From positions 70,000,001 to 70,060,000 of the forward strand of contig NC_087436.1 in the NCBI RefSeq assembly GCF_036321535.1: a stretch of DNA of 60,000 nt, written 5' to 3'. The first letter of the stretch is position 1; every line of letters starts with the position of its first letter. The notes under the pieces were generated by a model. The model made no database searches. It saw only the letters and a program-made list of their open reading frames with translations, and had not been told where the DNA came from. The stretch is from Camelus dromedarius. Its lineage: Eukaryota. Below are positions 1 through 56,588 of the stretch, one piece after another. A program made the translations under genes and the position numbers.

Positions 1-225
1 TAGAGGCCAACTACCTAACTACCCTACAAGTCTAACTGCCTAATGCAAACTGACAAATACAGATGGCCTAATCACTTTAACCAACCTCCCCATGCCCAGT
101 GTGCTCTAATACTTTCCACTAGCTCAACCCAGGGCTTAAAAACCTTCCCGCCTTTTGTTTAGTTGAATCTTGAATAAAGTCTTCCCTGCCTATTTAACTT
201 TGTTCTGCACAATCTTTCTTTGACA
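1..225 (+). mobile_element. 3' part of an ERV-type LTR (truncated by window edge)
   Basis: TATA-like CTTAAAAA ~135, AATAAA 173-178, LTR-type terminus ...aatctttctttgaCA at 225. Confidence 0.55.
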
Positions 226-980
226 GTGGTTGGGAAGTTTATAACTTTCTTAGAGAAAGTTACTGCTCTCTCTGCTGACTGTTCTGATTGTGCTGACTTC
301 CTCCTGTAAGAAAAATAATGCTCAGTCTATACAATGCCTGTGTTCAGTCTTTCTGTCAACCCATACCCCATGACATTTGTTGGTATTATTTTTAGGAAAA
401 CGTAATGCAGTAAAGTCAACATACAGGGAATGTCCAGTACATTTAAATCAATCTGTATATCCTATATCACACATGTAAAAGAGGTATGAATATTACCTTA
501 AAAAACTTAAAATGTGGTTCATTAAAAAATATGAAACTTTCAAGCTTTCAAAGCAAAGAGCAATTTTTGAAATCTTTGAATCTTAGTTGAAAATCCCCAA
601 ACCAAGAATCATAAAATACATTTGACCTATCTTTGTATTTTTTCAGTAAGGTGTCTGGCTTGGGCTTTTAGGTCAAATCTTTCCACTACTAGGATTGAAA
701 ACAATACAGTAAATGTCTAATCAAAGAATTACAGAAATTTTAATTTGGAGTCAGAAACTATTATAGAATATTGGTAATAAAAAAAAAAGGACCAAACTAT
801 ATATTTAAAATCTATTGATCTTCAGTATCCTCTGTATTTATAATAAATAGGCTGAACAATATTATTTTCATTTCACTTTTTTAAGAGAATTTTACTTCTG
901 ACCCTTGTCAAGAAGGGAACAGGTGTTCATGGCTTTAGAAAAACTGTTCACCCTAAATCTTACAGCATGGCCTTAACAAC

Positions 981-997
981 TGCACCCTCTGGTGGCA
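981..997 (-). promoter_or_regulatory. Candidate CTCF site
   Basis: Reverse complement TGCCACCAGAGGGTGCA closely matches the CTCF core CCACCAG(A/G)GGGCGC. Confidence 0.5.
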
Positions 998-2399
998 GCC
1001 TTCCCAAAGTGCAGGATCTGGTGTTGGTGTTTGGTTTATTTAGTTCTCTTGGTTTGCTTATTTGCTCACTCACTTTGTCAATTAATTTATTTTTTTTGTC
1101 TGAGGGGTGACTAGGTCTCTTTAAAAGGTACAATCTAAAAAAAATCTAAAACTCTGGAGTTTAGAAACAGCACACTGTATCACATTTTAAGTAGCTGTGA
1201 TGTAGGATGTAATTTGATCTCATTCTTTAACTTGCTAACTATATTACTAATACACAGTAGGACATACAAAGACTATAGAAGAGTGTGGGTATGTTAAAAG
1301 AGTGTAGATATCATCAGCAAGAGATTCAGCAAAATAAACAAGCATTATACAGACTTGGTTTCTGAAGAGCAACTACCTTAGAAGCAAGGTTCTCTTCTCC
1401 AAAGTGAAAGCAGTAGGTAGCAAATCCCTGTCTTCCAAGACAAACAGATCAACCCAGGAACTACCTGGGGGTAAACAGTGCTGTACTTTAACCAGGGATT
1501 ATGCTGAACAAGGAACAGTAAGAAGCATCCTCACGTAGTTTCCCTGAACAAACGTTGCAATTTTGTCAGATAATTTCCAAAATGGTCCTCAAAGAACACT
1601 TGGATATTTCACCATTTTTCTTCATGTTTTCTCCACTTTATGCCCACTTTATATTGGGCATATATTAGGAACAGCACTCATTAATGAGCTATTAACTATT
1701 TCTCCACTGAATAACAAATGTAGAAGGGGAAAGACGTTACTTTTAAAGCAGGCTGCAGTTTGAGTCTTGGAGCAGTATTCCTTTTAAAGATTAGAGATGC
1801 TCCTTCTTTAACTACTTTTTGAATATACAAAGATAGAATTGAGGGCTACAATAGTGGGATGTAAGCAAAGAGAGGACAAAATAGCTCTGATTTGTCAGAA
1901 ACATCAGAAAATTCTACCAGTGGCCTGAAAGAGATAGAGGGGTAGAAACCCAGAGTTGGGTCATCTAAACTGCTCCCAATAACCCTTCTAATCTGTACAT
2001 GTTCTCTAGTGAATATCTGAGTCCCAAGCAATACGGGAATCCCCAGGAATACTGACACCCAGGATATCACACATGTTCAGAGCACACACATTTGCAATCA
2101 AGAAGAGAACCAGCGCTGATGGTGGTTGGAGAAAAAGAAGACCTTCACCTTTTATGAAGAAATGACCTATTATTGCTTAAAGCCAGAAGCAAAAGGACTC
2201 AATGAACACATCCTTCCCACGGATGCCAATTTGCTAGTTTTAGCCAGTTTTAGCCTTGGCTCTCAGACTCCAAAGCAAAAATAAATATTAAGTATCTACT
2301 ACCCAGCATAATGCTAGATATTCATAGCCATACAAATGTTCAACTACAGAAGGCAAAGACGAAAATGCCTATTTAAAATGAAGATTTAAAGATTAGCAA

Positions 2400-2505
2400 T
2401 ATCCTTCAGTTTCCATAAGGATATCCAGCCAGTAAATAACAAAGACAGGATTCTAATGCAAATCTGTCTGATTCTAACATGCCAGTGCTCTTTCCACTGT
2501 ACCAA
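2400..2505 (-). mobile_element. MIR SINE fragment
   Basis: caggattctaatgcaaatctgtctgattctaac...tctttccactgtacca is the MIR 5' end in reverse. Confidence 0.55.
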
Positions 2506-2511
2506 ACTACC

Positions 2512-4560
2512 TCATTCATTCATTTAATAAATATTTATCAAGTGCTTATTATGTGCCAGGCATCAGAAGAGCAGTGGGAAAGACAAGGTGACTGGAAGTG
2601 GTGGTCAGTACTGTGAAGGAAGTAAGCAGGGTGATGTGATGAAAAGTGCTGGAGATCACTCCCTTGGGCACCAGAGTGTTCCAGAAAAGGCCTTTCTGAA
2701 AAGAAGACATTTAAGCCAAGTCCTAAAGCTTGAAAAGGACCCAGCCAGGCAAACATCCAGGGGCCAAGGATTTCAGGGAGATGGAAAGACAAAGGCTCCC
2801 ACGTTTGAGAACAGAAGTGCTTCCAAAGTGGCAAGGACACATGAACTACAGGAAGGCTGGTACAGATGAGGTTAACAGAAACCAGATTATTTTTAAGTTT
2901 TTTTTTTTAATAAAACAAAAAATTTAAGAAGACTTTGTAGACAATAATAATGAGTTTGTATTTCACTCAAAATTCAATGAAACGCCTGTAAGGATGTTCA
3001 ACATGGCAAAATATTATCTGAACAGCATTTTATACAATGACTGGGTGGAAAATGAACTGTAGGGTAATCAGAGCAGAAGCAGGGGATAAGTGAAAAAGCA
3101 CAGGTAATGATACCTGGGACCAGGAGGCAGGAGTAGGAATCAAGAGATGAGTTTGGAGGTTACCGCAGCAATTTATGTTAGTGATCATGGTGCCTTACAC
3201 TAGATCTTATGGCTCTCAGCTGGGTACACTGTTGCTCCCACCAAGAGACATTCAGCTGGAGACCTTTTTTTGTCACAACTGGAGGGATGATACTGACACC
3301 TAGTGGGTAGAAGCCAGGGATGCTGCTAGACATCCTACAATGCACAGGACTGTCTCTCTGAAAAAAAGAAATATCTAGTCCATAATGTCAATGGTACCAA
3401 GGTTGGAAAACCCAGAACTAGATGAAACTGGGTGGCAGGGACAGAACTGGAGAAAATTTGAAAGGGTTGGCTTACATTTTAGAAGTAGTACTGACAGGAC
3501 ATGCCAAAGAGGGTTAAATAAAGTATAAACCCTAGGTGTCTGACCTGGATAGGCGATGGTGCCATTCACCAAAATAGTGAAGACTTGAGGAAAAATGAGA
3601 CTGGGAGGAAAATGGAATTCAATTGAGTATTCAGTTTAAATCACATTCTGTTCAAGATAACTATTATCCAGATAGAGATGTACTTCAGTGTATATAGAGA
3701 TTTGAACTCAAAGGAAAAATTGGGACAAAAATATAAATTTGAGAGTTACCAGCATTCGAATTATATTTAATGACATGGAATTGTATGAGATCACATAGGA
3801 GAGAGGTGGGAGAAGAGATGAAAGGAAAGGGAAGGGAGTGAAAGAGAAAGCAAGGGAAGGAAGATTAGGACCACACCCTGAGGCACTCTAACTTTTCTGA
3901 AGACCATATAAAAACTAGAAGGAACAATCAGGGAGATGATAACAGAAAACCCAGGAGAGTGGTATCATGGATGCTCAGGGAGGAGAGGAAAGTATTCAAG
4001 AAAGAGGCAGTGGTTAATGATACAAATGCCACCAAAAGACTGAATAAAATGAAGGCCAAATAGTGTCCCTTAGCTCTGGCAACTTGGAGGTTATTAGTGA
4101 CCTTAAGCAAGAGCAGTTTCAATGCAGTGGTGGGAATGGAAGCCGTTGTGAAATGAACAAATGGAAAATGAAGAAACAGAGAGAGAAATGCAAATAATTC
4201 TTATTTTTGGAATTGGAGTCAAAAAATTAGGCAGCTACTGTATGGATATGTAGTCAAGAGAGTCTTGTTTAGTTTTTTGTTTCTTAATGTGGAGCAATGT
4301 TGGTATGCTGACAGAAAGGAAAAGAGATGGGAAGATAAGTGAAAAAGTGAAGTCCTTAAGAAAGTAAAGGGATGGGATCCAGAAAGAAAGTAGAGGAGTT
4401 GTCCATTAGTAGTAGTAAGGATACTTCTTCCATTGTAACAAGAAAGAGATGAGTCCAGGTTCAGGTATGTTGAGACAATAGGAGCGTTCCCATATAATGG
4501 CTTTCATTCTATCCATGTTGTTTCATTAAAGAAGAAGTAATCAGTTGGAAGGAGGGGGAG
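2512..4560 (-). mobile_element. L2 LINE fragments (interrupted by MER20)
   Basis: Reverse L2 3' end tcattcattcatttaataaatatttatcaagtgcttattatgtgccagg, then purine-rich L2 body (ttggaggttattagtgacctt..., gatggtgccattcacc). Confidence 0.7.
3210..3415. mobile_element. MER20-like hAT-Charlie DNA transposon
   Basis: ttgtcacaactgg...ctagtgggtagaagccagggatgctgctagacatcctacaatgcacaggac...aatgtcaatggtaccaaggttggaaaaccc. Confidence 0.75.
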
Positions 4561-4827
4561 GAGAAAGAAATCTGAAGGGCAATCCTAAGTGAGGATTTCT
4601 AGCTAGTTCTATACCTGCCCTGAAGTTATGACTGCCCTCGGCACCATGGCTAAGTGTCCCCAATAATAACGGCATCTCACTGGGAGCAAAACAATCTGAA
4701 CCACACCACTGTAACCAAGACGCTGGGAGTTACTGGAAATGATCACACAGCAAAACAACTGGAATTACTAGAAATGCTTGCCCTAGACCATTAGTCTCTA
4801 ATCAGCACGCTCACTCACACTCCAAGG

Positions 4828-5547
4828 TGTTGTTGAACCCAACTTCATGTACTCAATGCACAGTGAGTCTGAACAAACCGAAACATCTGAATTTGGAGCA
4901 GAGAAAGATTTACTAGTCCAGGAAGCGCCAACTCGGAAGATGGGAGATGTAGGCTTGTCTCAAACCCATCTTGCTGGCTGGCTGGGACACAAGATTTTAA
5001 AGACAAAGTGGTAAAGGGAAGGGGGGTCTTTGTGACTTCAGCTTCCTGATAAGACCTCTGTTGCAGACTTCCTGGCACCTTCTTGTGACTTGATGTGTCA
5101 TTGGTGATTGTGACTGATCTATATTCCTGCAAAGAAAACTAGTAACTCGTGGTCTTTTGATCTCTTTTCTTTCTAGGAGAGACTAAAAGCAGTGGTTGAG
5201 GCATCTTACTACTTACTTAGAGTTTCATGATGGTTCAGGAGTTTCAGTTCTTAATTCACCCTCCTGGTGTCATCAATTTTAAATCCGCTTGGGGTCAGCT
5301 GGTTGAAGCCACAGGACATTACCTCAACAGTTTGGGGTCATAAGGCATTAATTCAAGCCAACAATCATGGAAAAGATTATGTTGGGCTTGCTTTTCCTTT
5401 GTTTTTGTGTTCCCCTACTTCCCTAGTTAGTAACTGTTTGAATCAGGCCTTTGGAATTCAGGGAAGGTCTAGGAGGCTTTTTTCTATAAACAAGAACGTA
5501 AAGGCTTTTCATATACAGAAGGGCCCACAGGGTCCTATTCAGTTTCA
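4828..5547 (-). mobile_element. Solo ERV LTR (~720 bp)
   Basis: TG...CA termini; reverse strand starts TGAAACTGAATAGGACCCTGTGGG; flanks caagg / aaagg resemble a target-site duplication. Confidence 0.7.
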
Positions 5548-5589
5548 AAAGGATTATGTTATATATTCCCCAGCCTAAAATCTCAGTTT

Positions 5590-6320
5590 CTGTCCCTTCT
5601 CCCTCAACTCTTGGTAAGTGAGCTTGCCTAATATTTCACAGAGCAAACAGAAGTTGTCAAGTTGATTTCCTTCAATTTATTGCCACCATATGTACAAATC
5701 TTCCTGCATCTGTTCCCATCTTCTTTGCCTTTATTTCTGTTACGATGACCCAATTAAAGACCAATTCCTCCATTTGTGCTCTAGACACAAAAACATTCTG
5801 CCTTTCCAGGGCCTTTATTCCTTTATTTCTTCACCAATTCACAGCTGCAGTCTTCAAAAGGCTGAGGTGTCTACAGACATCGTATCATTCACTCACCTCT
5901 CAACATGCTCTAATTCAACTTTCACCCCATGACTCCAGTTTCTCAGTTCACCAATGATTTACTTGGTGCTAATTTAAATGGACTTATTTCAGTCATTATT
6001 GTACTCTAAGCAAGTCTCCACACTTTGATCACTTTGTCATTCTTGAAAACCTCTCTTAATTTGCCTTCTGTAAAACCACGCTCTCCAAGTTTTCCTCCTA
6101 CGGTGCCGCTTCTTCTCAGTCTCTTGTACTGGCTTCTCCACTTCCATCCATATACTTCAAGGTGTTGGCTATTGGCATGACTGAATCTTAGGCTTTGTCT
6201 ATTCTCAGTTCACATCAGAGATAGCAAACTGACAATCTTCCAGCTCAATCCCCACTGTCTAGTGCAGTGTCGGCAAAATAGTAAATACCTAATAGGTGTT
6301 TGTTTGAATAGTTAATTAAT
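5590..6320 (+). mobile_element. L2 LINE fragment
   Basis: Pyrimidine-rich L2 body ending in tctagtgcagtgtcggcaaaatagtaaatacctaataggtgtttgtttgaat. Confidence 0.6.
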
Positions 6321-6765
6321 TATAAGACTAGAATTCAATTGGGCTTAGGGTAAGGGGATGAGGACACAGTGTGGGACTAGCCACTAAAGCAAGCCCCAAG
6401 ATGAGAAATTCCTCCCCACCTCACATCAACAGTTTCTCACACCAGTTAACATAAGCTACCTACACTGGATAACTGATCAAGAAGCCAACAATTAAAAAAC
6501 AAAAGCCAACAATTGACACTTAAGCACCTCCTTGACATCTGATGATTTTAAAACACAATTAGGAAGTTGTTCCGAGTACTTAGCCTGGGGTCTACAATCA
6601 AGAAAGTCATACAACTAAAGTACATAGCCAAATGAAAGCTAGCTTAGAACTGTGAGTAAAATGAGAGTCAAATAAAAACACTATCATCAGTTTACCCACT
6701 TGTTTTTCTTCTAAGATTCAGTGACAGTTTTGTATGTTTATCCTTCTCTCCTGTCAATATCAAAG

Positions 6766-8240
6766 GAAAAGTAGAACCAAGCAGAGAGCTCGGTCTGATT
6801 CACCAGCTTTCAGACCAACTTCATCTCAATAAAACTCTGATCAAATTCAACTTCTTCCAAAACCAGCTGATGAGCAAAAAATAGTCCCAAACCTAAACTC
6901 ATCTGTAAATAGTCAGTCAGTCAAGACTTGGCTCTATACAAATTCACTGGAGACCAACTAATTAACAAAGAAGTACACCATCCAAAATCCATCCCATATA
7001 GCTTTTCATTCAAGATCTAGTTCTACACAAATTCATCTGAAATCAACTTGTCAGAAAATATCTTCCTTGTCCAAAGCTCATCCAAATGTAGCTGTTTAGC
7101 CAGGACCTGGCTCTACACAAACTCATCGAAGACAAGGTGATTTGCAAAGAATTTTCTTATCCCAAGAAGCTATTCAGCAGGGAGTTACCTCAAACAAATT
7201 CATCTAAAACAAGCCAATATTCATCCAGAAACATCTGCCACAGAACAAACTCTGCAAAAACTAACATCAGAAAAACATTTCCCAGTCTAAAGCTGGTCCA
7301 AAAACAGCTGTTCAGCTAAGACCTGGATATATACAAAGCCATTCAAGAATAACTAATAAGAAAGAGCCAACCCATCTAAAATGTATCCAAAAGTAGTTGT
7401 TTCATCAGGTGTTGCTTTTCCATATAATCATCCAAGACCAGCTATTTGGCAAAGAATTGTCCTACCAAAGCTCTTCTTAAAATAGCTATTCAGTCGGTAG
7501 CTTGCTTTCCAAAAACTCATATGAAACCTTGCAGTTAATCAAAATCCAGCTATTAAAATATTTTCCAAAATCTGCTATTCATTAAAAAAAACTTTAAAGT
7601 CTCAATTTTGCCCAAAATCACCTCAAAAAATATCTGATCACACCAAACTTCATCCAAATCCACAAATCAACAAAAGACCAGGACAACTCAATCTAATCAA
7701 AATGACATCTTTTCCCCCTGTGCTCCTCTGTCCAAACCCCCATCCAGATCTAACAGTTTAATTTTCAAGCTCTCAACCTCAAACACAAAGCACTGCTATA
7801 ACTTTCACTTTCCCTACTACCACGACTTCTAAAGCACTTCTACCACCACCACCACATCTACAACTCAGGTCTAACTATAATCACCACACTAACATCTGCT
7901 GTACCATAAAACAACCACTCCATCCTACAATAGCCTAGAAGCTGGCACCTAGAACTACTCTGAAACAAAAGTAACTCCCTATGATGGTAACTAATCTCAA
8001 ACTGACTTTGCATCTAACTTCTGAAACACAGAATCTTCTGCGGCAACACAGAATCATATACTGACCTTCCATTTGACTTTGAAAATACATATTTTACCGA
8101 TTACTCCTACAAAACTCAAAGTAACTACCCACCTGGCAGTATTGTATCAACTCTGAAACTACATAAACTCCCAACACTATTCCAGAACCTTATCTAAACC
8201 ATCACACCACCAATCCAAGCACTGAAATCATGAATTAATC
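6766..8240 (+). pseudogene. Putative decayed large exon of a mucin/SCPP-like secreted protein (15-aa repeat followed by PTS-rich tract)
   Basis: Pyrimidine tract at ~6735-6755; 45/90-bp degenerate repeat reads K-x-H-P-K-x-A-V-Q-x-x-P-G; Thr/Ser/Pro codon tract ~7790-8230; many stops and frameshifts; strong A/C skew. Confidence 0.45.
6845..7530 (+). repeat. Degenerate tandem repeat, ~45-bp monomer / ~89-90-bp dimer
   Basis: caagacttggctctatacaaattca 6922, caagatctagttctacacaaattca 7011, caggacctggctctacacaaactca 7101, taagacctggatatatacaaagcca 7317; further unit starts at 7289, 7378, 7467. Confidence 0.75.
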
Positions 8241-10549
8241 CCTTTTACTCTAGTACCACATCTCTTATCCTTCCCCTCAGCATCCTCATTTATGACTATT
8301 TGCAGGACATTCTTTCTCTTTTGAAAAGTCATCCGCAACAAAGCCTATTTTTTTAATCCATATGCATGTACTTTTAATGCTGAGTTGAAATTATGTAGAA
8401 ATTTTTCTATTTAAACTGAGTACACGTTGAATTGAGCTCAACTCTGTTGAATGAGGGAATTTGAAAATACATCCAATATTTCTAATGACATTACACACTG
8501 AACTTTATCACCTATGACCAACGGCCAAGCTACTCTACCAAAAAGTCTGAACATATTTTCCCAATCTGAAAAAAAAACTTCGAGATTAATAATAAACATA
8601 TATGGTTTCTTTCTATTTAGTAGAATTTCAGTTCTTAGTTCAGTGCCTCTGCTTCTGGCATTCATCAAACCACTCCATAGAAAAGTGGTTCTATTGCAGG
8701 TTTTGAAGCATATGCCCTAATTTCCTTGGGCCAGTACACACACACTGGTCAATAATTTTAAAGAATTCTGTAAATTTACAAAGTCAAGGAAGTGATAACT
8801 CAATTCAACTTGTATCTATTGCTCTACCACATGCAAGATACTTTGCTGGGTTCTACAGAGAATATAAAATGAGCAAGACACAAGATTTACCTTGAAGCCT
8901 AATATCTCAAAATAGAAACACAAATAATAGCATCGGCCAAAGTAGAATAAAGTAAATAAGAAATTCATGAATTCAAATATGGTTTCTGAGAAGGAAAAGG
9001 AAGGCTGACTTCAAATTAGGGGAAGAAAGACTTAATGAAGGTTGTAGCATAAAAAAAAATCTTTAAGGATGGGTAGAGCTTCTGGGCTACTGTAGGATGA
9101 CCAAAAATGAAAGGGGGGAATCTAGGCAGAGGGAATACCATGAATAAATGCAACAAATGCAAAGAAACAAGCTGAAAATACATGAAGGCTCTTTTCTGAC
9201 CTCTAGCACATACTTCCATTTCACCTACACATTATACAGTGATTGGACACTGGCTGTATTTCTCACAAGAACACAAGCAGGGATTCTGTCTTATTCACTT
9301 TTGTAACCTAGCAGCTAGTACAATACCTGGCCAAGCATAATTTAGGTTTAAATTTAATAGATGTCGTTGGAATTACTATGCATCGTGGAATGCTGATTGC
9401 AGTTTCAAATTATTAACGTACTTAACTTAATCAAGCTATCACAACAATTGATAGCAATTGTGTGTCTCGAATCCTTTTAAGGCTGTGATTAAATTATCAA
9501 GTGGTAGGACAGAAAGGTCTCCACTCTACCTTATCCTTTGATTACCAAAAAGGTCCTCTTAGACTGGAATTCACAAAGAGTGCCTTGGGTCTGAGTAATT
9601 CCAATCTCCCCACATCCATTGGGTATGATGGAATTGGGAAGAGGGTATATTACTTGGCTTGAGAAGTCCTAGAAAGTTCAGGGATAACACAAATAACTAG
9701 AGGTTTCTACCAAGACTACTCCAAACCAGAGACTTTTAACCTGGGTATTCACAGTTGGGCTCTCAGGAGATCCATGATACATATTTTGTTCATGGTCATA
9801 TGTGCATTTTTTCTCAGGAGATAGTTATAGATTCAATCAAATTCTCAAAAGGGTTCATAAACAAAATTAATTTAAAAATAAAGCCAATAATAAATATAAA
9901 GAAATGCCTAGATCTACAGAGCCAAGAGATGTAAACTGCAGTTCATAAAGTACTTTAAAGAATCCTGATATCCTGAGTCATTTCAGAAAAAATGAATTAC
10001 CTCACTATTTTTGCTGATGTCTCTCAGTTTTAAGAATATTTAGGAATTTTCCCCTTTTATAGTACATATTTCTTGACATCCAACTCTATAATTATATTAT
10101 TGTAAGTTATCTGCTTTCAAACTTAAAATTTCTTGTCTAAGAAATTACTCAGCCTTCTTAATTTCCCTTGTTTATTTTGGCCAAATTCTACTGACTGCTC
10201 AGTTTCCAAGCTAGGGCGTGTTCCATTCCAGCTTGGGGTTGGAGACATGTCTGCAACAGGCATTCGATGCTCTCAGTTCCCTGAATCACCTGATGTCCAG
10301 ACAGTCACACTGTGATTCAATTAGAATAAGCTATTCATTAGCACCATACTCTAGACTGGCAATAGAAACCAAGTCTCCTCACCTAAGCCCAGGATTATCA
10401 GTGGCATAAAATTCAACTCTGCCTCCTCCAAAAAGAAAAAACAATTTTAAGGAAGCCCCTTCCCCTACACATTCATTGAAAAGAATGTCCAGGGGAAAGT
10501 GGACTCCGTGGTGTCATGGGCTCTCTCCCACATAATGAGTCTTGACTAT

Positions 10550-12697: not shown

Positions 12698-12751
12698 ATG
12701 AAGACTACGATTCTACTGTTTTGTCTCCTAGGATCAACTCTGTCATTACCA
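12698..12751 (+). CDS. AMTN: Amelotin exon 2 CDS, signal peptide MKTTILLFCLLGSTLSLP (exon starts 12684)
   Basis: Acceptor tttcag|GTAGCAATTTGAACATG; donor CCA|gtaagt, phase 0; matches the amelotin N-terminus. Confidence 0.97.
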
Positions 12752-25156: not shown

Positions 25157-25834
25157 GTAAATTCTCCAAGCCGCTCATGTGCCCCTGGGCCATGAAAGTC
25201 ATCTGCAAAGTGGAAGGAGAGTTCTTGCCTTGACAAATGCAGATCCCAGTAATACCAGGGAGCCCTTTTACTCATCACATTTGATTGCAGCAATGTGAGG
25301 GAGTGTTTTCACTAGGCTACCAACCCTATCAAATCTACCAGAAAGAAGACATTTAATTGCTGGCATAACTTATCTTCTATGTTAAATCAGAGCTAGAAAT
25401 ATTTGGAAACAAATGGTGCTCTCCCTTTCCCATCCTCCCCGCCCCCACAACCCTCAAACACACACAGGACACAGTTAATCAATCAAGATATTCTTTTCTC
25501 CTCCCTAATCATGGATGAGTCTCAGAATCTTCCTAACATAAGGTTGCAAGCAGCCACTAGTAATAGATGCAGTTAGCACAGTAGATGAACCCATGTGCCA
25601 TTCCCCTCAGATGGAACTTTTAAAATGTGGCAAAAATAAGCTCTTCTAGCACCAACAGAGATAATCGTTTAATCTGTGAGGATGTCCAGACCCAAGTGTT
25701 CCAAATGTCCAAATGGACAAAAGGATGATTCGCTATTGATACTCTTGACCCTAGAAAAGAAATTTTGATCTCAAATTAAAATGTTTAAATTCAATGCTTT
25801 TACCAAAATTTAAAAGTGTTTTATTTTCTTCCAG

Positions 25835-26112: not shown

Positions 26113-27752
26113 ATGTATTTTGAAATTGACTCTTTTTCTTCTTTGCGGAGTTGGGGGTTGGTGAAAGAAAGTCAGACCATTTCAGAAACTCCATCACCTC
26201 AGGACACCTAGGTGATTACTCACGGCCTGGACTTTCTCTGGAAGCAGGCAGTGCAGCAGTCATGGCAGTGGACATCCAGCTGTCTAAGGACAAGTTCTAA
26301 TTTCTTCACAACCACCTTAAGACCCACTGTCTCACATAGGAGCCACAAATTTAATTTTCAACAAGCAAATTAATTGCAAATTAAAAGCAAATTATATGTG
26401 CATCTAAAATATGCAGAAGCCAAAAATTATGTCATATTGCCTATCCTCAAGCTGCTTATATACTAGTGATTCTGGCATTTAATGTTTAGTTTGGTATGTC
26501 TGAGAGTTAGCAATGACATTGATAAAAGTACTCACTAAAGAAGAAACTCTTGCTCTGCACATCTAAAAGGTAGAATTTAATCTTATTTAAGTGTATAGCC
26601 CAGACCATTGCACTCCATTCAGAGTGGGAGGGACTGAGAGGCATTAACACAAACTACAGAGAGGCCCCACGTAGGAAAGACATGGGCATTGAATTTAAAC
26701 ATTTTCACTTGAGATCAACAGATATTTATAACATTTCCCACTATATTTTCATCAGCCTCATCAGTATGGAACAAACCTAAATATATACTCACAAAATATA
26801 TTCCATGTTAAGTTTTTCAGATGGTTAAAAATTTAGTAGTGGCTAAAGATTTATTACCCACGGTGTTTTAGATGTGCAGAGCTGAATAACATATTATGAA
26901 TTTTCAAGATTTTTTTAGTCAAATGAGAGTAAATTATTTTGCCATTAGTGTCATGTGATACTTACTACAAGTGTTAATCGAAAGATTTCCTAGGTAACCC
27001 TCTATAGAAAAAAAAGAGTCTCTCTGAGCTTCATTTTACTTATCTGTAAAACAGGGGCAAAAACTCCTGTTATAGACATCCCACAAGGTTAACATGATGA
27101 GTTCAATAAGACGGTAAGGGGTAGGAGTATTCCTGAAAGCCATTTCTGAAGTGGAACAAGAGCAACTGAATCATTCACAAACCACACACATTTATCCCAC
27201 TAAACCCAAAATCAATTTCTCCTCAATTCAACCTTTCTTAGGCAAATCTCAAAAATACCTATGATCATCACAATGCCTTTTGATGCAAAGTATGATGAAA
27301 GGAAAGCCACCATGGAGAGAGACAGATGTTGTTACTGGTTGTAGTTAAAATATCTTACATTTTCAAGAGCTACAAACGTAAGACTCTGTGAACACATTGC
27401 TAGCATCCCCTTAGGGTTTTGGAAGGAGCCAGGGCAAGAAAAAGGCCCTGAAGCTTAAGCTTTATTAGCTTCATAATCAATCCATCTCTGCCTCACCACT
27501 TTTACCCAGTTCTATTTGCCCTTCCTTCCCTTGTGTTTGTGTTATTTTTGTAACATCCTATTTACATCCTTATTAGATGCCAAAAAGTCATAATAACACC
27601 TCCCTTGTTCTAGGTGACAAATTCTGCTTGGCGTACAAAGCAAAGGGAAATAATGTATAGTGAGAGCATTCTATGTGGGAAGTACAAAATATTTTTGAAA
27701 AACTAAGCTCTAATTTAGTCTTGGTAAGGCAAATGGATACCAAGGTCTGGAG

Positions 27753-36710: not shown

Positions 36711-36757
36711 AAACTGTAACCATAATGATGAGTGATGGTGAAAAAAGCTGTGAGCTG

Positions 36758-37040
36758 CAAATGATAAATGCTGGAGAGGCTGTGGAGAAAAGGGAATCCT
36801 CCTGCACTGCTGGTGGGAATGCAGTTTGGTGCAGCAATTATGCAAAATGGTATGGAGATTCCTTTAAAAACTGAAAATAGACTTACTCTATGATCCAGCA
36901 ATCCCACTCTTGGACATATATCCAGAGGGAACTCTAATTCAAAAAGATACCCCTATGTTCATAGCAACACTATTTACAATAGCCAAGACATGGAAGTAAC
37001 CTAAATGTCCAATGACAGATGACTGGATAAAGAAGTTGTG

Positions 37041-37075
<35 letters not shown>

Positions 37076-37565
37076 TTCTGTTTTATATATATATATACTA
37101 AAATACTACTGAATACTACTCAGCTATAAAAAAGAGTAAAATAATGCCATTTGCAGCAACATGGATGGAGCTAGAGATCACCATACCAAGCCAGAAAAAA
37201 AGAAAGAAAAATACAATATGATATCACTTACATGTGGACTCTAAAAAAAAAAAAGTACACAAATGAACTTATTTACAAAACAGAGACAGACTCACAGACA
37301 CAGACAAACTTATGGTTACCAGGGGGAAAGGCGGTGTGGAGAGGGATAAACTGGGAGCTCAGGATTCATAGATACTAACTACTATATATAAAATAGATAA
37401 ACAAAGCAAGGTGTTACTGTACAGCACAGAGAACTATATTCAATACCTTGTAATAACCCATAATAAAAAAGAATATGAAAAGGAATATATATGTATAAAT
37501 GAATCATTATGCTGTACACCAGAAATTAATACAACATTATAAATCAACTACAATTAAAAAAAAGA
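36758..37565 (+). mobile_element. 5'-truncated L1
   Basis: aaatgctggagaggctgtggagaaaagggaa...gcagcaacatggatgg...A-tail; TSD aaaagctgtgagctg / aaaggctgtgtgctg. Confidence 0.85.
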
Positions 37566-40500
37566 AAAGGCTGTGTGCTGTATGTAACTGATTCTGCTAT
37601 AAGTCAATACAACCTTAGGGAAAGTAGTTTGGCTGTGTAACTTAGAGCAGTGCTTCCCAGTCCTGGCTGTACATTAAAATTTCCTGGCAAACTTTACAAA
37701 ATATCTATGTCCAGGTTCCATTCCAGAGCAATTCAAAATCTCTGAGAGTGGGGCCCAGTGGTGAGTATTTTCAATTAAAGGAAAATGAAAAATTTTATTA
37801 AGTAGATAAAATTGTAATTATATGGATAGTTAATGAAATATTATGTGTTAAAAAATGTAACATTGGAAAATGCTTGCAGTATAATGCTAAACTAAGGCAG
37901 TCAGCATAAAGTAAGAGACCTAGACGCTAACAGAGAAAGTGACCCAAAACCACGTGAAGTCTTGAGTAAAAATTTGGTCAGCTGCCCCAAGAAAAATCAA
38001 GTATGTTCTTTCCTCACTTAGACATGATTTAAAGATTTGCATTGTTGCAAGGCTGTAAAATTTCCAAAACAAAAATTCTGGAGATACACTATTCTTATCC
38101 CCTTCATTACATAACCAGTAGTTACTTATTTGATGTAGTAAGCAGACACGACATTCCAGGAATGACATCCCTGAAATGAACGTTCCCCATGACCAATGTT
38201 TTAACCACAAAGGGCTATGGCAGACAGCTGGGATTTGAACTCTGCTTAAACATCCACTAGTGAATTGATACAACTTGCAAACTCACTTTTTTTTTTAACG
38301 CAAGGAGTTTGATTCTTTTGAGTCGTGATAGTATAAAAATTACAGAAACATGAAAAGCTACAGAGCTGAATTTTAGAGTAAGTTCAGGCATTAGAACGCT
38401 CCAATAACTTCTCAAGTCTTTGTGAATAAAATCTGCAGCCTTGATTTGAAAGTCCTTCTCATTGCTGTATAGTAACGGGACCTTGTAATGCAGATGGGAC
38501 AACACTTTAGGGGTATTTTGGCAATTTTTGCAGGCATTTTTGGCTGTCACAATGCTTGAAGCTGCTACTGATGTGCAGTGGCAAGTGCCAGTGCTGCTCA
38601 GTGTTCTACAATATATGGGGAAGTGCCAAACGAGAAAGATGTAGTTCACATCCTGCATGCCTTTCAAGTGTCCACCAGGTTTTCATGGAGATAAATAAAA
38701 CAATTTGTTTATCTGAGCCTAGGATCTAACTCTTTTTGAATGTTAGTATACACAGAATATTTTAGGCCCGTACCTTCCTTTTAATCATGGAGAGAGAATA
38801 CTTGGTTTCTGTTCAAACTTTTCCAAGAGTAGTTAACCATTGTGGAAAATCATGTCCCTAAAGACAAGCACTATTCATGGCATTTGAGCTAATGGCCACA
38901 TTTGTACCATCTGCCTTGGTAGCTGATACTTGCCAATATTATATAGAGAAGATTTGAGATACCATTAATATTAGTTGACATACATGAAATGCACAGATCT
39001 CACCACATTTTATTAAGAATTCTATTTTTTAATTTGGGAGCATAATGTTTTCTAATCATGTACGTTATGAAAATCACAGCCTGAAATTTCTTGAAATTGC
39101 CTACTGTTCTTTTCAACTTTATGGTTCCCAGAGATCTTCTACAAAACTTCTCTTTTATCCCTTGAATTGTTATTTCTTTTTTCAGTAGATCTCTAGTCTC
39201 CTGTTGACAATCAAACTGTATGGTCTCTGTGGTCCCTTTGGATATTCAAGACAGAATCTATACCTCAACATGTGGTTTCAAGATAGATTTTGTTTATTAA
39301 ACTATTCTCGTCTGTCCCATGCAACAGAGGGAATTATTTTGACACACACTTGTAAATAAGGCCAGCTCATTTGCAAGAATATCATACTTCCTCATTTTCT
39401 CACTTCAACAATCTGTAATTTGTCTTGACATGTTGTCCCTACTGCAGTTAAGGTTATTTCCCACTTTCTCTTACCAGATGTAGACAGGTTAGTCTGTCAT
39501 TACTTAACCTAACGGTAGTTTTTATTGTGGTGTCTACTGCACCTCTACTCTCTCATTTTCCTTCTTGTTCAGCATGGCTTTTAATTTTACTTCTTCCAAA
39601 TTTTTAGTCATTACAAGTAGGTACAGACATCTGACCACTTCATTTTGGCTTCTTGTGTAGTTGTGCTCAAGCGCTTTACACCGAAGTGCACACTTCTTAT
39701 TATACTTTTCTTTCTCCTTTAAATTATAGTAAGGATTTTATACTTATATTTAATGCAGTTTTTAAATTATGTGCACATGGAGGTTACAGAATGAATTTAA
39801 TTTCAGGAAAGGAAGTATTTATATAAAAAGAGGGTTTCAGGTCTGAGGAGTACAAAAAAGGTACACTATTTGCCACCTCCACACTCAGACACCATGTCCC
39901 TGCTCTCAGCCCTGTGGCTCTGCAGCTCTTCAAGGCTCATTCAGGGGGCTTTGCAATTAGATTTTTGAAACTGCTCCTGCCTTTAAAGGTCTCTTCTCTG
40001 AAATGCTATGGCCCTATTTACTTTACGTGGTTGGAATTTAATCTCATACTGCCTTGAGCTACCACTGCTGATCTTAAGTGTGTGAGCATCATTATCTCCT
40101 CAGCAGGACTCTAAGCGTCTAGAAAGCAAAATTATTTGCCAGGCCCCCTAAATCCTTTAACACTGTACTTTGCACAAAGTTAGACCTCAGTAAATTCTGT
40201 CTGAGTAAATAAATCAACTTCTAAACTTTACATGGTGGCACAGTTCTTGGCACATCCTACTTGTCAGACCAAACTTTAATTAGTTTCTTTATATGTGTGA
40301 CTATCTCACAGACTGTTAGAGAGGAAAGGGAACATGATTATTCACCCCTGTAATCTCAACACCAGAGCCCACTGACTAGTTCAGAGAAATCATCCAGTGA
40401 ATGTTCACTAATGACCAGATGGATGCATTAATTAAATTTATGAGGAAGATTCCGATGTAACTGTAGATTATGTGGAAGTATAATTTAATAAGAATGAACG

Positions 40501-44139: not shown

Positions 44140-45136
44140 CGTACATAAACAGCTCATACAACTCAGTATCAAATCAATATCAAAAAAACAAACAACCCAA
44201 TCAAAAAATAGGTAGAAGAGCTGAATAGATATTTTTCCAAAGAAGGCATAGAGACAAATAGTAGGTACATGAAAAGATGCTCAACATCCTTAATTATCAA
44301 AAAAATGCAAATCAAAACTACAATTAGCTATCACCTCACACCTGTCAGAATGGCTATCATCAAAAAGTCTACAAATAACAAATGCTGAAGATGATGTAGA
44401 CAACGGGTAACCTTTTACACTGTTGGTGGGAATGTAAATTGGTGTATCCACTACAGAAAACAGTATAAAGTTTCCTTAAAAAACTAAAAATATAACTACC
44501 ATGTGATGTAGCAATTTCACTGCTGGGCATATACCTGGGAAAAAAATGCAAACACTGATTCAAAAAGATACATGCACCTGGTGTTCACAGCAGCATTATT
44601 TACAATAGCCAGGATATAGAAGCAACCCAAGTGCTCATCAACAGACCAATGGATAAAGATCATGTGATGTGTGTGTGTATACACACACACACACACACAC
44701 ACAGGAATATTATTCAGCCATAAAGAGAATAAAATTCTGCCATTTGCAGCAACATGGATGGACCTAGAGAATGTTATGCTTAGTGAAAAAAGTTAGACAA
44801 AGACAAATACTGTATGATATCACTTATATGTAGAATCTAAATAGTACAAATAAATGTATAGCAAAATAGAAATAAACTCACAGATAGAGAAAACAAACTA
44901 GTGGTTACCGAAGGGGAGAAGTGGGGAGCAAATTAGGGATAGGGGATTAAGAGATACAAACTACTATGTATAAAATAGATAAGCAACAAGAATAGATTAT
45001 AGCCATTATCTTGTAATAACTTTTAATAGAGTATAATCTGTAAAAACACTGAATCACGATGTTGTATACTTAATATAATAATATAAATCAATTATACTTA
45101 AATTAAAAACTAAAAATAAAAAAAACAAAAACAAAA
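44140..45136 (+). mobile_element. 5'-truncated L1 inserted into a MIR, with internal (TG)/(CA)n
   Basis: L1 ORF2 end and 3' UTR; TSD aaacagcatgta (44128-44139) / aaacaacatgta (45137-45148). Confidence 0.85.
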
Positions 45137-45230
45137 AAACAACATGTATGGATTTTGGAGTCATACTGATCTGAATTTAAATTCTGATATACTTATCAGA
45201 CATACATCTTTAGCAAGTATCTTGACCTCC

Positions 45231-45475
45231 CTTTCAAAAAACCAGCTCTTGGTTTGTTTGATTTTTTCTATTATTTTTTTATCTCTATTTTACTTATTTC
45301 CTCTATGATCTTTATTCTTTCTTTCCTTCTGCTGACTTTAGGCTTTGTTTGTTCATCTTTTTCTAATTCTTTTAGGTGGTAGGTTAGGTTGTCTATTTGG
45401 GATTGTTCTTGTTTTTTGAGGAAGGTCTGTATTACTATGAACTTCTCTCTTAGGATTGCTTTTGCTGTATCCCAA
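45231..45475 (-). mobile_element. Internal L1 ORF2 fragment
   Basis: ORF 45271..45483 WDTAKAILREKFIVIQTFLKKQE...PKVSRRKERIKI matches L1 ORF2 just after the endonuclease domain. Confidence 0.85.
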
Positions 45476-45862
45476 GCCACCATCGTCTCTCACCTAGATT
45501 ATTGCAATCTCTCCTAACCTGTACTATGCTTCCACTTTTGGCCCCCTTGAGGCTGTAGAACCCAGCCAGAATGTCTTCCCTCACTTCCTTCCCAGATGAC
45601 TTCTTTATACTGAGACCTTCCATGGCCACCCTATCCAAAATTTCAAAACACATTCATAACAATTCCTATGCTTTCTTCCTGCTCAATTTTTTCTCCTTGG
45701 CACTTATCATACCATGTATTTAACATACTAACCTTGTTAATTGACTGTTTCCCCCACTAGTAGGTGAGCTATTTGAGGGGGTTTTGTCTTGTTTTGTTCA
45801 CTTTCATATCTCATGTCTAGAGCAATGCCTGGTACACATTAGATGCTCAGTTGTTGAATGCA
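45476..45862 (+). mobile_element. L2 3' fragment
   Basis: gccaccatcgtctctcacctagattattgcaat...tctagagcaatgcctggtacacattagatgctca. Confidence 0.7.
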
Positions 45863-47094: not shown

Positions 47095-48434
47095 TGTCTC
47101 TTCAGCAAGTGGTATTGAGAAAACTGCACAGCTGCATGTAAATCAGTAAAGTGAGAACACTCCTTCACACTATATGCAAAAATAAACTCAAAATGACTAA
47201 GACTTAAACATAAGACAAGACAGTATAAACCTCTTAGAAGAAAACATAGGCAAAGTATTATCTGATATAAATCTTAGCAGTATTCTCCTAAGACAGTCTA
47301 CCCAGGCAATTGAAATAAAAGCAAAAATAAACAAATGGGACCTAATTAAACTTATAAGCTTTTGCACAGCAAAGGAAACCATAAGCAAAACAAAAAGACA
47401 ATGTACAAAATGGGAGAAAACATTCGCAAAAGATGAGACTGACAAGGGCTTAATTTCCAGAATATATAAATGGCTCATACAACTTAATAACAAAAAAACA
47501 AACAACCCAATCCAAAACTAGGCATATCTAAACAAGCAATACTCCAATGAATACATACAAGGCCAATAGGCACATGAAAAAATGCCAAATATCACTAATT
47601 ATCAGAGAAATGCAAATAAAAACTACCATGAGATATCACCTCACACCAGCCAGAACGGCCATGGTTAAAAAGTCCACAAACGATAAATGCTCGAGAGGGT
47701 GTGGAAAAAAGGGAATGTAGTTTGGTGCAGCCATTATGGAAAACAGTAGGAGATTCCTCAAAAAACTAAAAATAGACTTACCATATGATCCAGCAATCCT
47801 ACTCCTGGGCATGTATCCAGAGGAAACTCTAATTTGAAAAGATATATGTACCCCAATGTTCATAGCAGCACTATGTACAATAGCCAAGACATGGAAACAC
47901 AACCTAAATGTCCACTGACAGATGACTGGATAAAGAAGATGTGGTATATTTATACAATGGAATACTACTCATCCATAAAAAAAGAATAAAATAATGCCAT
48001 TTGCAGCAACATGGATGGATCTGGAGATCGTCATTCTAAGTGAAGTAAGCCAGAAAGAGAAAGAAAAATACCATATGATATCACTCATATGTGGAATCTA
48101 AGAAAAAGGAAAATAGAAGACACTAATAAACTTATCTAAAAAAAAGAGACAGACTCACAGACATAGTAAACAAATTTATGGTTACCAGGGGAAAGGGGGT
48201 GGAAAGGGATAAATTGGGAGTCTGAGATTTGCAAATATTAACTACTATATATAAAATAGATTTTAAAAAACAAATTTCTCCTATAGAGCACAGGGAACTA
48301 TATTCAATATCTTGTAGTAACCTATAATGAAAAAGAGTATGAAAACTAATATATGTATGTCTATGTATGACTGAAGCATTATGCTGTACACCAGAAATGG
48401 CCAAATTGTAACTGACTATACTTCTTCTTAAAAA
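47095..48434 (+). mobile_element. 5'-truncated lineage-specific L1 (~1.3 kb)
   Basis: ORF2 C-terminal region and 3' UTR; TSD aatattaaagttcaa (47080-47094) / aatatgaaaggtcaa (48435-48449). Confidence 0.88.
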
Positions 48435-49375: not shown

Positions 49376-49879
49376 AATAAACATGTGAAGAAAATATTTA
49401 ACCTTGATAATGATCAGAGAAATATAAATTAAAACACCAAGTTATTATCACAAGAAAAAATTTTATAACCGTGTATGGTGACGGATAGACTTCTTGAAGT
49501 GATTATTTCACAATATATACAAATATTGAATCATTATATCATACACCTGAAATTAATACATTATATGTCAGTTATACCTCAAAACAAAGTCAAAAACATG
49601 AAATACTACATTATAACTACTGAATTATGGAAAAAATTAATTAGATGAATAAATTCTGGCAAGTGAACTGGTATACATAAACTGTTGGTAGCATATAAAT
49701 TTGGATAATTTGGCAATACTTATCAAGAGTCATAAAAATATGCATACTTTTAACTAGGAATCTTATTCATGGGAAATTATACAAAGAAAATAATTCAAAA
49801 TATAAATTTTTATTATTTACTAATTAAAATATTTATAGTAAAAATTAGAAACAATCAAAGGTCAAAAAATAGGAGTCTT

Positions 49880-50915
49880 ACAACCTAGGGAATGGGAGAA
49901 AATTTTTGCAAATGAAACCGACAAAGGCTTGATCTCCAGAATATATAAGCAGCTCATATGACTTAATAAGAAAAAAAAAAAAAACCCAATCCAAAAATGG
50001 GAAGAAGACCTAAACAAGCAATTCTCCAAGAAAGAAATACAAATGATCAATAGGAACATAAAAAAATGCTCAATATAACTACCAGAGAAATGCAAATCAA
50101 AACTACAATGAGGTATCACCTCACACCAGTCAGAATGGCCATCATTCAAAAGTCCACAAATGACAAATGCTGGAGAGGCTGTGGAGAAAAGGGAATCCTT
50201 CTACATTGCTGATGGGAATGCAGTTTGGTGCAGCCACTGTGGAAAACAGTATGGAGATTCCTCAAAAGACTAGGAATAGACTTACCATATGACCCAGGAA
50301 TCCCACTCCTGGGCATATCCAGAAGGAACCCTACTTCAAAATGACATCTGCACCCCAATGTTCATAGCAGCACTATTTACAATAGCCAAGACATGGAAAC
50401 AGCCTAAATGTCCATCAACGGATGACTGGATAAAGAAGATGTGGTATATTTATATAATGGAATACTATTCAGCCATAAAAACCAACATAATGCTATTTGC
50501 AGCAACATGGATGCTCCTGGAGAATGTCATTCTAAGTGAAGTAAGCCAGAAAGAGAAAGAAAAATACCATATGAGATCACTCATATGTGGAATCTAAAAA
50601 AAAAAAAAAAAGCATAAATACAAAACAGAAATAGACTCATAGACATAGAATACAAACTTGTGGTTGCCAAGGGGGCGGGGGTTGGGAAGGGATAGACTGA
50701 GATTTCAAAATTGTAGAATAGATAAACAAGATTATACCGTATAGCACAGGGAAATATATACAAGATCTCATAGTAGCTCACAGAGAAAAAAATGTGACAA
50801 TGAATATATATATGTTCATGTATAACTGAAAAATTGTGCTCTACACTGGAATTTGACACAACATTGTAAAATGATTATAAATCAATAAAAAATGTTATAT
50901 TGTTCAAAAAAATAA
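49880..50915 (+). mobile_element. 5'-truncated lineage-specific L1 (~1 kb)
   Basis: gaatgggagaaaatttttgcaaatg...ORF 50289..50597 ([32 protein letters not shown]) is the L1 ORF2 C-terminus. Confidence 0.88.
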
Positions 50916-52824: not shown

Positions 52825-53070
52825 AATAATAATAACTCATGGTCATTGAACATTTTCATTATATCAGATAGTGTGCTGAGAACTTTATGTTCAGTATTCT
52901 ATTTAAATTAAATGAAATTAATACTGTCTTATGGTAGCCTCCATTTTACAGATGAAGTTACTGTGGGAAAATACTATATATATTCAAGTTGAGTAGCTCA
53001 CCCAGTGTCACATGATCAGTGTCACAGAGGAGATTTAAACAGCTGTGCCCTCACCAACTGTACTAACATC
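52825..53070 (-). mobile_element. MIR SINE
   Basis: ctccattttacagatgaagttactg...gctcacccagtgtcacatg. Confidence 0.55.
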
Positions 53071-55392
53071 TACAGGGGCTATTTTTTCTAGATTTTTCTT
53101 TATAACTTTTCTAACACCCCACAGGTGTTTCAGATCTTCTATTATTCTAAGGGGCTTTTTTACTTTTGCTGTACTTTGAACACAGAGCTTCTTAATTGGG
53201 GCTCTGGTTGTTCTTAACATAGGTATAGTCTTGATCAACATAACATAGTTTCCTTCAGCTGCAGTAACTTCTTTAACATCGATAATCACTATCAGAAACA
53301 CTCATGTACTCACACTTATTTCTAGAATTTTTTGTAATTAAAATATTTTCATAGGATTATATTTACTTTCTCAGTAACATAAACCAAAAATAAAAAACCA
53401 ACTTCAACTGATTACAACAATCATTATTATTGTATCAATACATAGTGTTTCACATAAAGTGGGAGGTATGATTAGAAAAGTGAATTAAAATGTTAATTTG
53501 ACTGGTTCCAGAGGGTGAATTTTACCTTAGCGCCTCAGGGATCCTTAAAAAGTTTTTGAGTGGGGCAGTGAAATGCTAAAACCAATATTTTAGGAAGATA
53601 AGTTTGGTGTTGGTATGCAGGAAATTGAAGGCAAAAGAAACTAATGGGTAAACATCTGGAAGACAGTAATGCCAAGACTGAGCGTGAAGGACATTTCAAA
53701 AAAGGTAGAAGCAACATGACTTATGACATACTGGGTATTTGGCTTAAGAGAAAGGCAGAACATATGAATCCTACAAAACATCATTATTAGCATGTCATGA
53801 TCATGCTCATAAGCCATAAAAGACATGTACACACACTTCCCATTTCTCTGTTCAGCTGTCAACTAAGAAGCTTAACCCCATAGATTCAGCAACAGCTTCC
53901 ATTTAGAGGAAATGCCTTCCATCAGATCCCTCCTCTACCCTCCTTGGAGTTCGTGGACCTAACTGCCAGTACTCTTCCTCCTGTAACACACACACAGTCA
54001 CACCTGCACACACAGTGTCTTTGTGGTCCCATGTTTCATGTGGTTTTTCCCACACAAAGAACTATCAACCCATTTATTGCACACCCACTGTACAGAGCTG
54101 CTGCATCTTCATCATCACACCAAATCTTCAAAACAAGTCTATGGTAGGTAGTAATTCTTACCCTTATATTACAGAGGAAGAAATGGGAGCTCAGAGAGAT
54201 TAAGGGACTTGGCCAAGCACCAGAGCCAGAATAAAGAGAGAGAGAGAGGCCAAAAATAATACTTTTAATTTCAATAACATTTTGCTATTTACAAAACACA
54301 TTCACATACTTTATTTCTTTGCCTCCTAAAAATAATTCTCTTATCAATGGGAAATGCAGTTTTTCTCGGACAGCTTCTTGGATATCATTATAAACTGTTA
54401 GGTATGAAGAAAACTTTCTCCCAAAATACCAGCTTCCTCGATGTTCCCTGTAATTGACAAGACCTCTACTTCCCTAAAGAGCATACTGACTCATCCCTTC
54501 TTAAGAAACTAATCTTAAACTCTTACCCCTACCACATCTGAAATCACACCTTTGGAAAGACAAGGAGGGGCAGAGAAATAACAAAAGCTACCAAAGGTCA
54601 ATCTGTATCCAAGACATTCTTAACTGTTCAGAGAGAAAATCTCACTCATGTTGATAGCAGCCTTTTAAGTGACACAAATGTCACTCTCTAACCTGGCTTC
54701 ATACTAAATGCCTGGAAATTGTTCTATCTAAAGAGTGAACTGAGAGTAGTGCACACTGACTTGACTGGTTCATGGACAATGTTCTGATGCATGTACCTCT
54801 CCCCACCAAAGAACATGCACTAAAGGTTTACCTGAGGTGATTCATTCAGAGGGTCCTATTGAAATTTCTTGCAGAAGTTTGGCTATCTCTAGTATATGTC
54901 TCCAGATACAAAAATATCTGGGAAATTCTAAGGAAAGATTATAACATATTTATTACTCATCTAGTATCTTCATCCTCTCTTCCAAGCCCAGGAAGTCATT
55001 TTAGTGTTTCCTTCTAGACTGTCTGTATGCTGGCGGAAGGGAGCAGAGTTACTTTTACCACAACAAGTATGAGGTGAAAATCTTGAGAATACTGGCACGG
55101 GTCATTAGCTTTACTGAAAGATAAAAACCTGCACAAAGCAGATGATGGTTTATTTTGCACCTATTCTACAGATATTTCTCCCAGCTCACCAAAATAATTG
55201 TCTTCAGAGTTTATGCCCACTATTCCTTCACTGTCTTGCCTGCAATCGAGTTCTCTGAATAAATACAGGGGTTGAGTTACAATTAAAAATAATGAGACTC
55301 TACTGGGCCAATGTCCTTGCATGAAATAAAAGGGTGTAGAGTAATTGCAGGAGCAGAGTGGTTGTGTTTTTTTCCCCCATTTAGCTTCACTT

Positions 55393-56519: not shown

Positions 56520-56588
56520 ATACCACTTTTCAAAATGAAGGACATGATACTGATCCTGTGCCTCCTGAAAATGAGTTCTGCAGTGCCG
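56520..56588 (+). CDS. AMBN: Ameloblastin exon 2 IPLFKMKDMILILCLLKMSSAVP (signal peptide)
   Basis: tttcag|ATA...CCG|gtaagt, 69 nt, phase 0. Confidence 0.97.

Follow-up and report, generated by a model that had tools for sequence, protein, structure and literature searches.

A probable dead terminal exon of a secreted cationic-repeat protein upstream of AMTN in the dromedary genome

A degenerate tandem repeat upstream of AMTN in Camelus dromedarius raises the question of whether it is the relic of a coding exon and, if so, of which gene. We analysed it within a stretch of 60,000 nucleotides of contig NC_087436.1 (70,000,001 to 70,060,000, forward strand), hereafter called the window, in whose coordinates all positions are given. 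AMTN serves as the synteny anchor: its signal-peptide exon, where AMTN coding begins, lies at 12698-12751 on the + strand, and an exon downstream of it matches Pfam PF15757 (Amelotin) with an E value of 5e-41. The repeat-bearing exon lies upstream of AMTN on the same strand, and this position and orientation in the CSN-AMTN-AMBN-ENAM (SCPP) cluster fit a P/Q-rich SCPP gene. In our judgement it is most likely what remains of the last exon of an SCPP-locus gene, now dead, whose secreted product would have combined a cationic repeat domain with an O-glycosylated stalk and an acidic tail. An AMBN-like signal-peptide exon was also observed at 56535-56588 on the same strand, which we take to be that of AMBN.

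The first-pass annotation had reported a degenerate array with copies 89-90 bp apart and a periodicity of about 45/90, preceded by a pyrimidine tract. The spacing was borne out by a repeat search, by autocorrelation and by tile ranking, the tract is present in the sequence, and so are all five of the translations that had been quoted. The repeat search of the window recovered six 56-nt copies at 6892, 6981, 7071, 7287, 7376 and 7465 (spaced by 89, 90, 216, 89 and 89 nt), the first three being the copies previously placed at 6922, 7011 and 7101, positions shifted 30 nt inward. Autocorrelation against 500 shuffles gave z values of 5.5-7.4 at lags of 15, 45 and 89 nt, the 15-nt sub-period inside the 45/90-nt repeat being additional to the earlier description, and the tile at 6801 ranked first of 296 at each of the lags 15, 45, 89 and 90. 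A profile of the 90-nt unit had nine matches, all on the + strand and all within 6810-7684, a partly circular result in that eight of the nine matched units had been used to build it. Tandem Repeats Finder, which had been expected to return a period of about 45/90, did not report the array even at a score of 30.

The array (6810-7684, + strand) therefore reads, from the unit profile, as about nine 90-nt units of two 45-nt halves each, with five stops and seven frameshifts, and its translation in register is a basic 30-aa repeat rich in S, Q, P, K, T and H. Four of five short spacings appear as 89 nt, which at first sight is contrary to a coding repeat. When the units are aligned, one of these spacings reflects an offset reference copy and the remaining three reflect 1-nt losses at three different unit positions, so that the original unit was 90 nt long; the 216-nt gap contains a partial unit and two compensating shifts.

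The array is the 5' part of a decayed exon of approximately 1.5 kb, extending from about 6754 or 6766 to 8233. The earlier interval, 6766-7760, does contain the array, but the coding-like stretch continues for about 470 nt beyond it, to about 8233; likewise, the reading as a coding exon stands, while the S/T-rich and Tyr/acidic parts had been overlooked. At the 5' border, a pyrimidine tract with a candidate splice acceptor occupies 6730-6765 (+ strand), and the acceptor once used would be either the AG at 6764-6765 or a decayed CCTG ending at 6753. In phase 0 the reading from 6754 is S-I-S-K-E-K followed by a stop, and that from 6766 is E-K followed by a stop; the AG at 6764-6765 is one base off the K-x-H-P register, and a decayed acceptor at 6753 would also require a later frameshift. 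Judging from the translations, 6754-6809 (+ strand) may be the non-repeat start of the exon.

Downstream of the array on the + strand, a Pro-rich linker (7685-7760, with a stop at 7759) is in frame with both the last repeat unit and the start of an S/T-rich, mucin-type region (7761-8050), which is interrupted by several frameshifts and stops. A Tyr/acidic tail follows and passes into a short extension to a TAA (8051-8233); this end point is a tentative placement, and the original stop codon may have been earlier. Further downstream, the AATAAA at 8591-8596 (+ strand) is a candidate polyadenylation signal by motif. Within the S/T tail, at 7957-8172, there are two- and three-copy short repeats, possibly remnants of a second array. 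A search of 1-6700 for a signal-peptide exon flanked by canonical acceptor and donor sites gave none, and the missing exon may lie to the left of the window or have decayed. The segment 2500-6400 consists of alternating purine- and pyrimidine-rich blocks, presumably old L2 and LTR fragments by their appearance, which may have displaced the missing upstream exons.

Concentrating on the K-x-H-P register, the segments between 6767 and 7833 contain six stops in 351 codons (against 6.1% expected from base composition) and seven frameshifts, and 79% of their third positions are A or T. Basic residues predominate (64 K, R and H versus 10 D and E), and Q (9.7%), P (9.1%), S (11.7%) and T (8.5%) are abundant, a Pro/Gln-rich composition that fits the disordered mature protein of a P/Q-rich SCPP gene. 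Manual placement of these segments makes the phase statistics of the repeat part look better than they are, and a phase model was therefore trained on 6767-7526 and then applied to 7528-8234. This tail, outside the training part, scored -9.0 versus -29.2 +/- 6.0 for shuffled sequence, with none of 200 shuffles as high; as a positive control, the tile of an AMTN exon ranked fifth of 170. Stops by themselves barely pick the frame, with 5 in 173 codons versus 10 in 175 and 9 in 173 for the other two registers, and each + frame of the unit consensus contains one stop.

The stop load translates into roughly 0.14 substitutions per site (0.05-0.3), which is probably an underestimate; at a typical mammalian rate, such an amount takes tens of millions of years to accumulate. 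Four runs, from three studies that are not flagged as the origin of the stretch, contain every one of its sampled words, and the lesions are therefore unlikely to be assembly errors.

A profile of 31 positions was searched against 1,835,955,588 representative proteins and returned four matches (P0013-P0016), among which P0013 is the one true homologue. It is an unnamed 72-aa ORF from a Logan contig and aligns to 6818-6995 (+ strand) without gaps and in the same register, with 32 of 59 residues identical. Where the window has four of its stops P0013 has amino acids, and it reads across the window's frameshift at 6890; this openness was partly selected, as P0013 was recovered with a profile of the K-x-H-P frame. 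Beyond residue 63 it follows the window's shifted frame and is therefore broken too, apparently through a deletion at a different position from that of the window. P0014-P0016 (unnamed, moth and pomegranate) were rejected as chance repeat matches, none of them having a tBLASTn match to the window at E 1. The 90-nt repeat has codon phase, runs in frame into the S/T region and bears lesions absent from the copy in another genome. The proposal that a coding exon, long dead, precedes AMTN on its strand and reads in the K-x-H-P register is upheld by the codon phase, by P0013 and by the Pfam identification of AMTN.

The same annotation had suggested that the gene may be intact in other mammals. The profile search found no intact protein homologue among the 1.84 billion representatives, where any close orthologue that was intact and rich in units should, provided that the database covers mammals, have scored above P0013. 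Word searches, as far as they cover mammalian proteins, gave none of 14 and none of 42 candidates among longer proteins (about 25 of the 101 residues of the first query were out of register) and P0013 alone out of 12 candidates among short proteins. In the ESM Atlas there was no usable match for a 77-aa stretch of the window or for P0013. The suggestion thus lacks an intact copy in these searches: the sole homologue confirmed by sequence is itself broken, and a candidate in the ferret is suggestive only.

This ferret candidate, LOC101687748 ("mucin-5AC-like", 539 aa), is given in table S1 of PMC9417175 as the one member of ancestry group 5, and the 9-mers in the same table run from a signal peptide through about 325 basic residues and an S/T region to a Tyr/acidic end (PMC9417175). 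It resembles the exon in lying in the CSN3-AMTN interval, in its similar length, in the order of basic, S/T and Tyr/acidic parts and in composition (P 11.1, S 13.2 and T 12.4%, versus 9.1, 11.7 and 8.5% in the 351 codons of the window). In contrast to the exon, it is intact, has a 19-aa signal peptide and a longer S/T region, is listed with repeats of 6 and 27 bp rather than 45/90, and was not recovered by the window's repeat profile. The comparison rests on the tabulated 9-mers of the protein, with likeness judged by eye; several of its motifs resemble the window in the same order at different spacing. Scored over 119,948 window positions, one 9-mer fits best at 7503, where it is in register (score 35, the next being 28), and the other two of the three motifs tested ranked 12th and 35th/65th, figures that are suggestive only, the three having been picked by eye, after looking, from about 138 rows. 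None of five motif terms occurred among the 9-mers in that table. In a list that appears to follow genomic order, a ferret mucin-5AC-like protein stands between PARM1 and MUC7 (PMC9417175). We infer that this listed protein is LOC101687748. PARM1 we take to lie on the AMTN side of MUC7, which would place the listed protein on the AMTN side as well, if the list is in genomic order. LOC101687748 is then probably at the same position as the exon of the window.

On balance, we favour homology of the exon to ferret LOC101687748, as an orthologue or a tandem paralogue. That the exon and P0013 are both dead orthologues of this gene, which was published as a newly arisen, ferret-only mucin, is a more tentative proposal, about which we are somewhat hesitant. 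The dog has a gene in the same interval and with the same layout, LOC111098430 ("proteoglycan 4-like", 949 aa), with a signal peptide, a basic region, an S/T region and an acidic tail, and its product has been reported from dog saliva (PMC9417175). Its repeats of 180 bp are twice 90, but its basic region is much longer, the 9-mers in the table include no K-x-H-P match, and by eye there is no collinear likeness. As genes of the same layout are annotated in this interval in ferret and dog, the earlier description of the gene as unannotated was probably too strong.

MUC7 is the other obvious comparison, being a cluster neighbour which, in its 9-mers, has a His-rich/basic N-terminal part ahead of the PTS domain, and it has one large last exon. 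Its repeats lie in the PTS domain, however, whereas those of the window are in the basic part, which is several times longer than that of MUC7; the window also has an acidic tail rich in Tyr. In PMC9417175, the MUC7 proteins of camel and ferret are separate entries of 254-257 aa.

Alternatively, the exon could be the fossil of a separate SCPP-locus gene without a living orthologue, which may have died once and early, and with which the ferret and dog genes would share layout and composition only. We regard this as doubtful, bearing in mind that it is a variant of the explanation preferred here and that most of its probability is common to both. It would agree with the lack of an intact protein among the representatives searched, with a frameshift in the sole homologue, P0013, near the same place as in the window, and with motif spacings that differ, by eye, from those of the ferret protein. 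However, the frameshifts of the window and P0013 are apparently at different unit positions, and the ferret motif that ranks first in the window, together with several others in the same order by eye, also tells against this reading.

An old non-coding minisatellite or transposon relic, in which a 15-nt period imitates codon phase, is unlikely. In its favour, a period divisible by three produces phase on its own, and the upstream exon was not found in 1-6700. In addition, variation between units is lower at third positions (0.32) than at first (0.48) and second (0.46) positions, not the pattern that purifying selection usually leaves. Against such an origin, the phase signal persists in the non-repeat tail, the window's strongest C skew lies on one strand in the tiles over 6500-8900, which include the S/T region, and P0013 is open where the window is broken. 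The earlier claim that the block contains no recognisable transposon stood insofar as Pfam gave nothing above cut-off in any of the six frames of the stretch, Rfam gave no match, and no second copy of the array occurs elsewhere in the 60-kb window. A SINE motif was looked for and was absent.

That the locus still works in the dromedary, through a non-coding RNA or a short peptide, is very improbable: the AATAAA at 8591 and the AG at 6764-6765 remain, but the longest stop-free stretches in the exon are 74-78 codons, the lesion load fits neutral decay and there is no Rfam match. Six runs recorded or guessed as RNA, with contigs totalling 242-847 million letters, contain 0.07-0.73 of the words of the stretch, and this share rises with run size, so that DNA carry-over or a close relative is as likely a source as transcription.

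As for the gene to which the dead terminal exon would have belonged, its signal-peptide exon would have stood upstream, as is usual, and would since have decayed or lie beyond the edge of the window. The product would have been secreted and some 500 aa long, beginning with a cationic repeat domain of about 300 aa, continuing in an S/T stalk that carried O-glycans and ending in a Tyr-rich acidic tail. By analogy, the product was probably a small non-gel-forming glandular mucin whose cationic part may have bound microbes, mineral or other mucins; its secretion, glandular role and binding are predictions from nearby genes that share this layout. Duplications of 15, 45 and 90 nt would have enlarged the repeat in the still-coding gene, which would then have died, the estimated 0.14 substitutions per site (0.05-0.3) having accumulated since. 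Orphan mucins of the SCPP locus have been defined by a T+S content of about 20% or more and by tandem repeats in their exons that are rich in P, T and S (PMC9417175). In the dromedary exon, T+S is 20.2% in 6767-7833 and 16 of 50 residues at the start of the tail. The clear tandem repeat is basic and not PTS-rich, and the S/T tail has only short two-copy repeats. Membership among the orphan salivary mucins rests on position and composition, because the signal exon is missing.

In the literature, the SCPP interval is the prime example of mucins that arose anew in single lineages, with 28 lineage-specific mucins from 15 events, all between CSN3 and AMTN and counted from gene annotations (PMC9417175). 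If the exon and P0013 are dead orthologues of the ferret gene, an old SCPP-cluster gene with a long cationic repeat domain lay between MUC7 and AMTN, was kept in some carnivores and was lost repeatedly elsewhere, and some of the 15 events of "independent mucinisation" would be differential losses hidden from annotation-based searches. A fossil with the S/T region already in place would redate one such mucin, from a gain to repeated losses. The intact ferret gene, so far described as ferret-specific, is the nearest intact candidate to which the exon may be related. The exon also draws attention to secreted proteins with long cationic repeats, a class that has been little studied. It is nevertheless a pseudogene of an already known kind of gene, of interest mainly if the ferret link holds; should that link fail, it adds one pseudogene to a region whose turnover is already well known. 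A full-text literature search, with most subscription journals outside its scope, gave no description of this fossil exon, and the synteny figure S2 of PMC9417175 may mark a pseudogene here.

Several other features of the window were observed. Between AMTN and AMBN, an 88-codon stop-free frame on the - strand (53035-53301) coincides with the tile of highest period-3 power in the window; it has no Pfam match and is possibly a retrocopy fragment or another fossil exon. The segment 14500-16900, in an AMTN intron, is richer in G+C, with raised period-3 power and phase score. Self-BLAST detected related L1-like copies at 36755-37570, 44170-45500, 47200-48400 and 49860-50900, and the 3' end at 50490-50900 resembles what we take to be camelid L1. 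Finally, a 33-nt inverted pair (25765-25797 and 26686-26718, 94% identity, about 900 nt apart) perhaps represents the ends of a DNA transposon.
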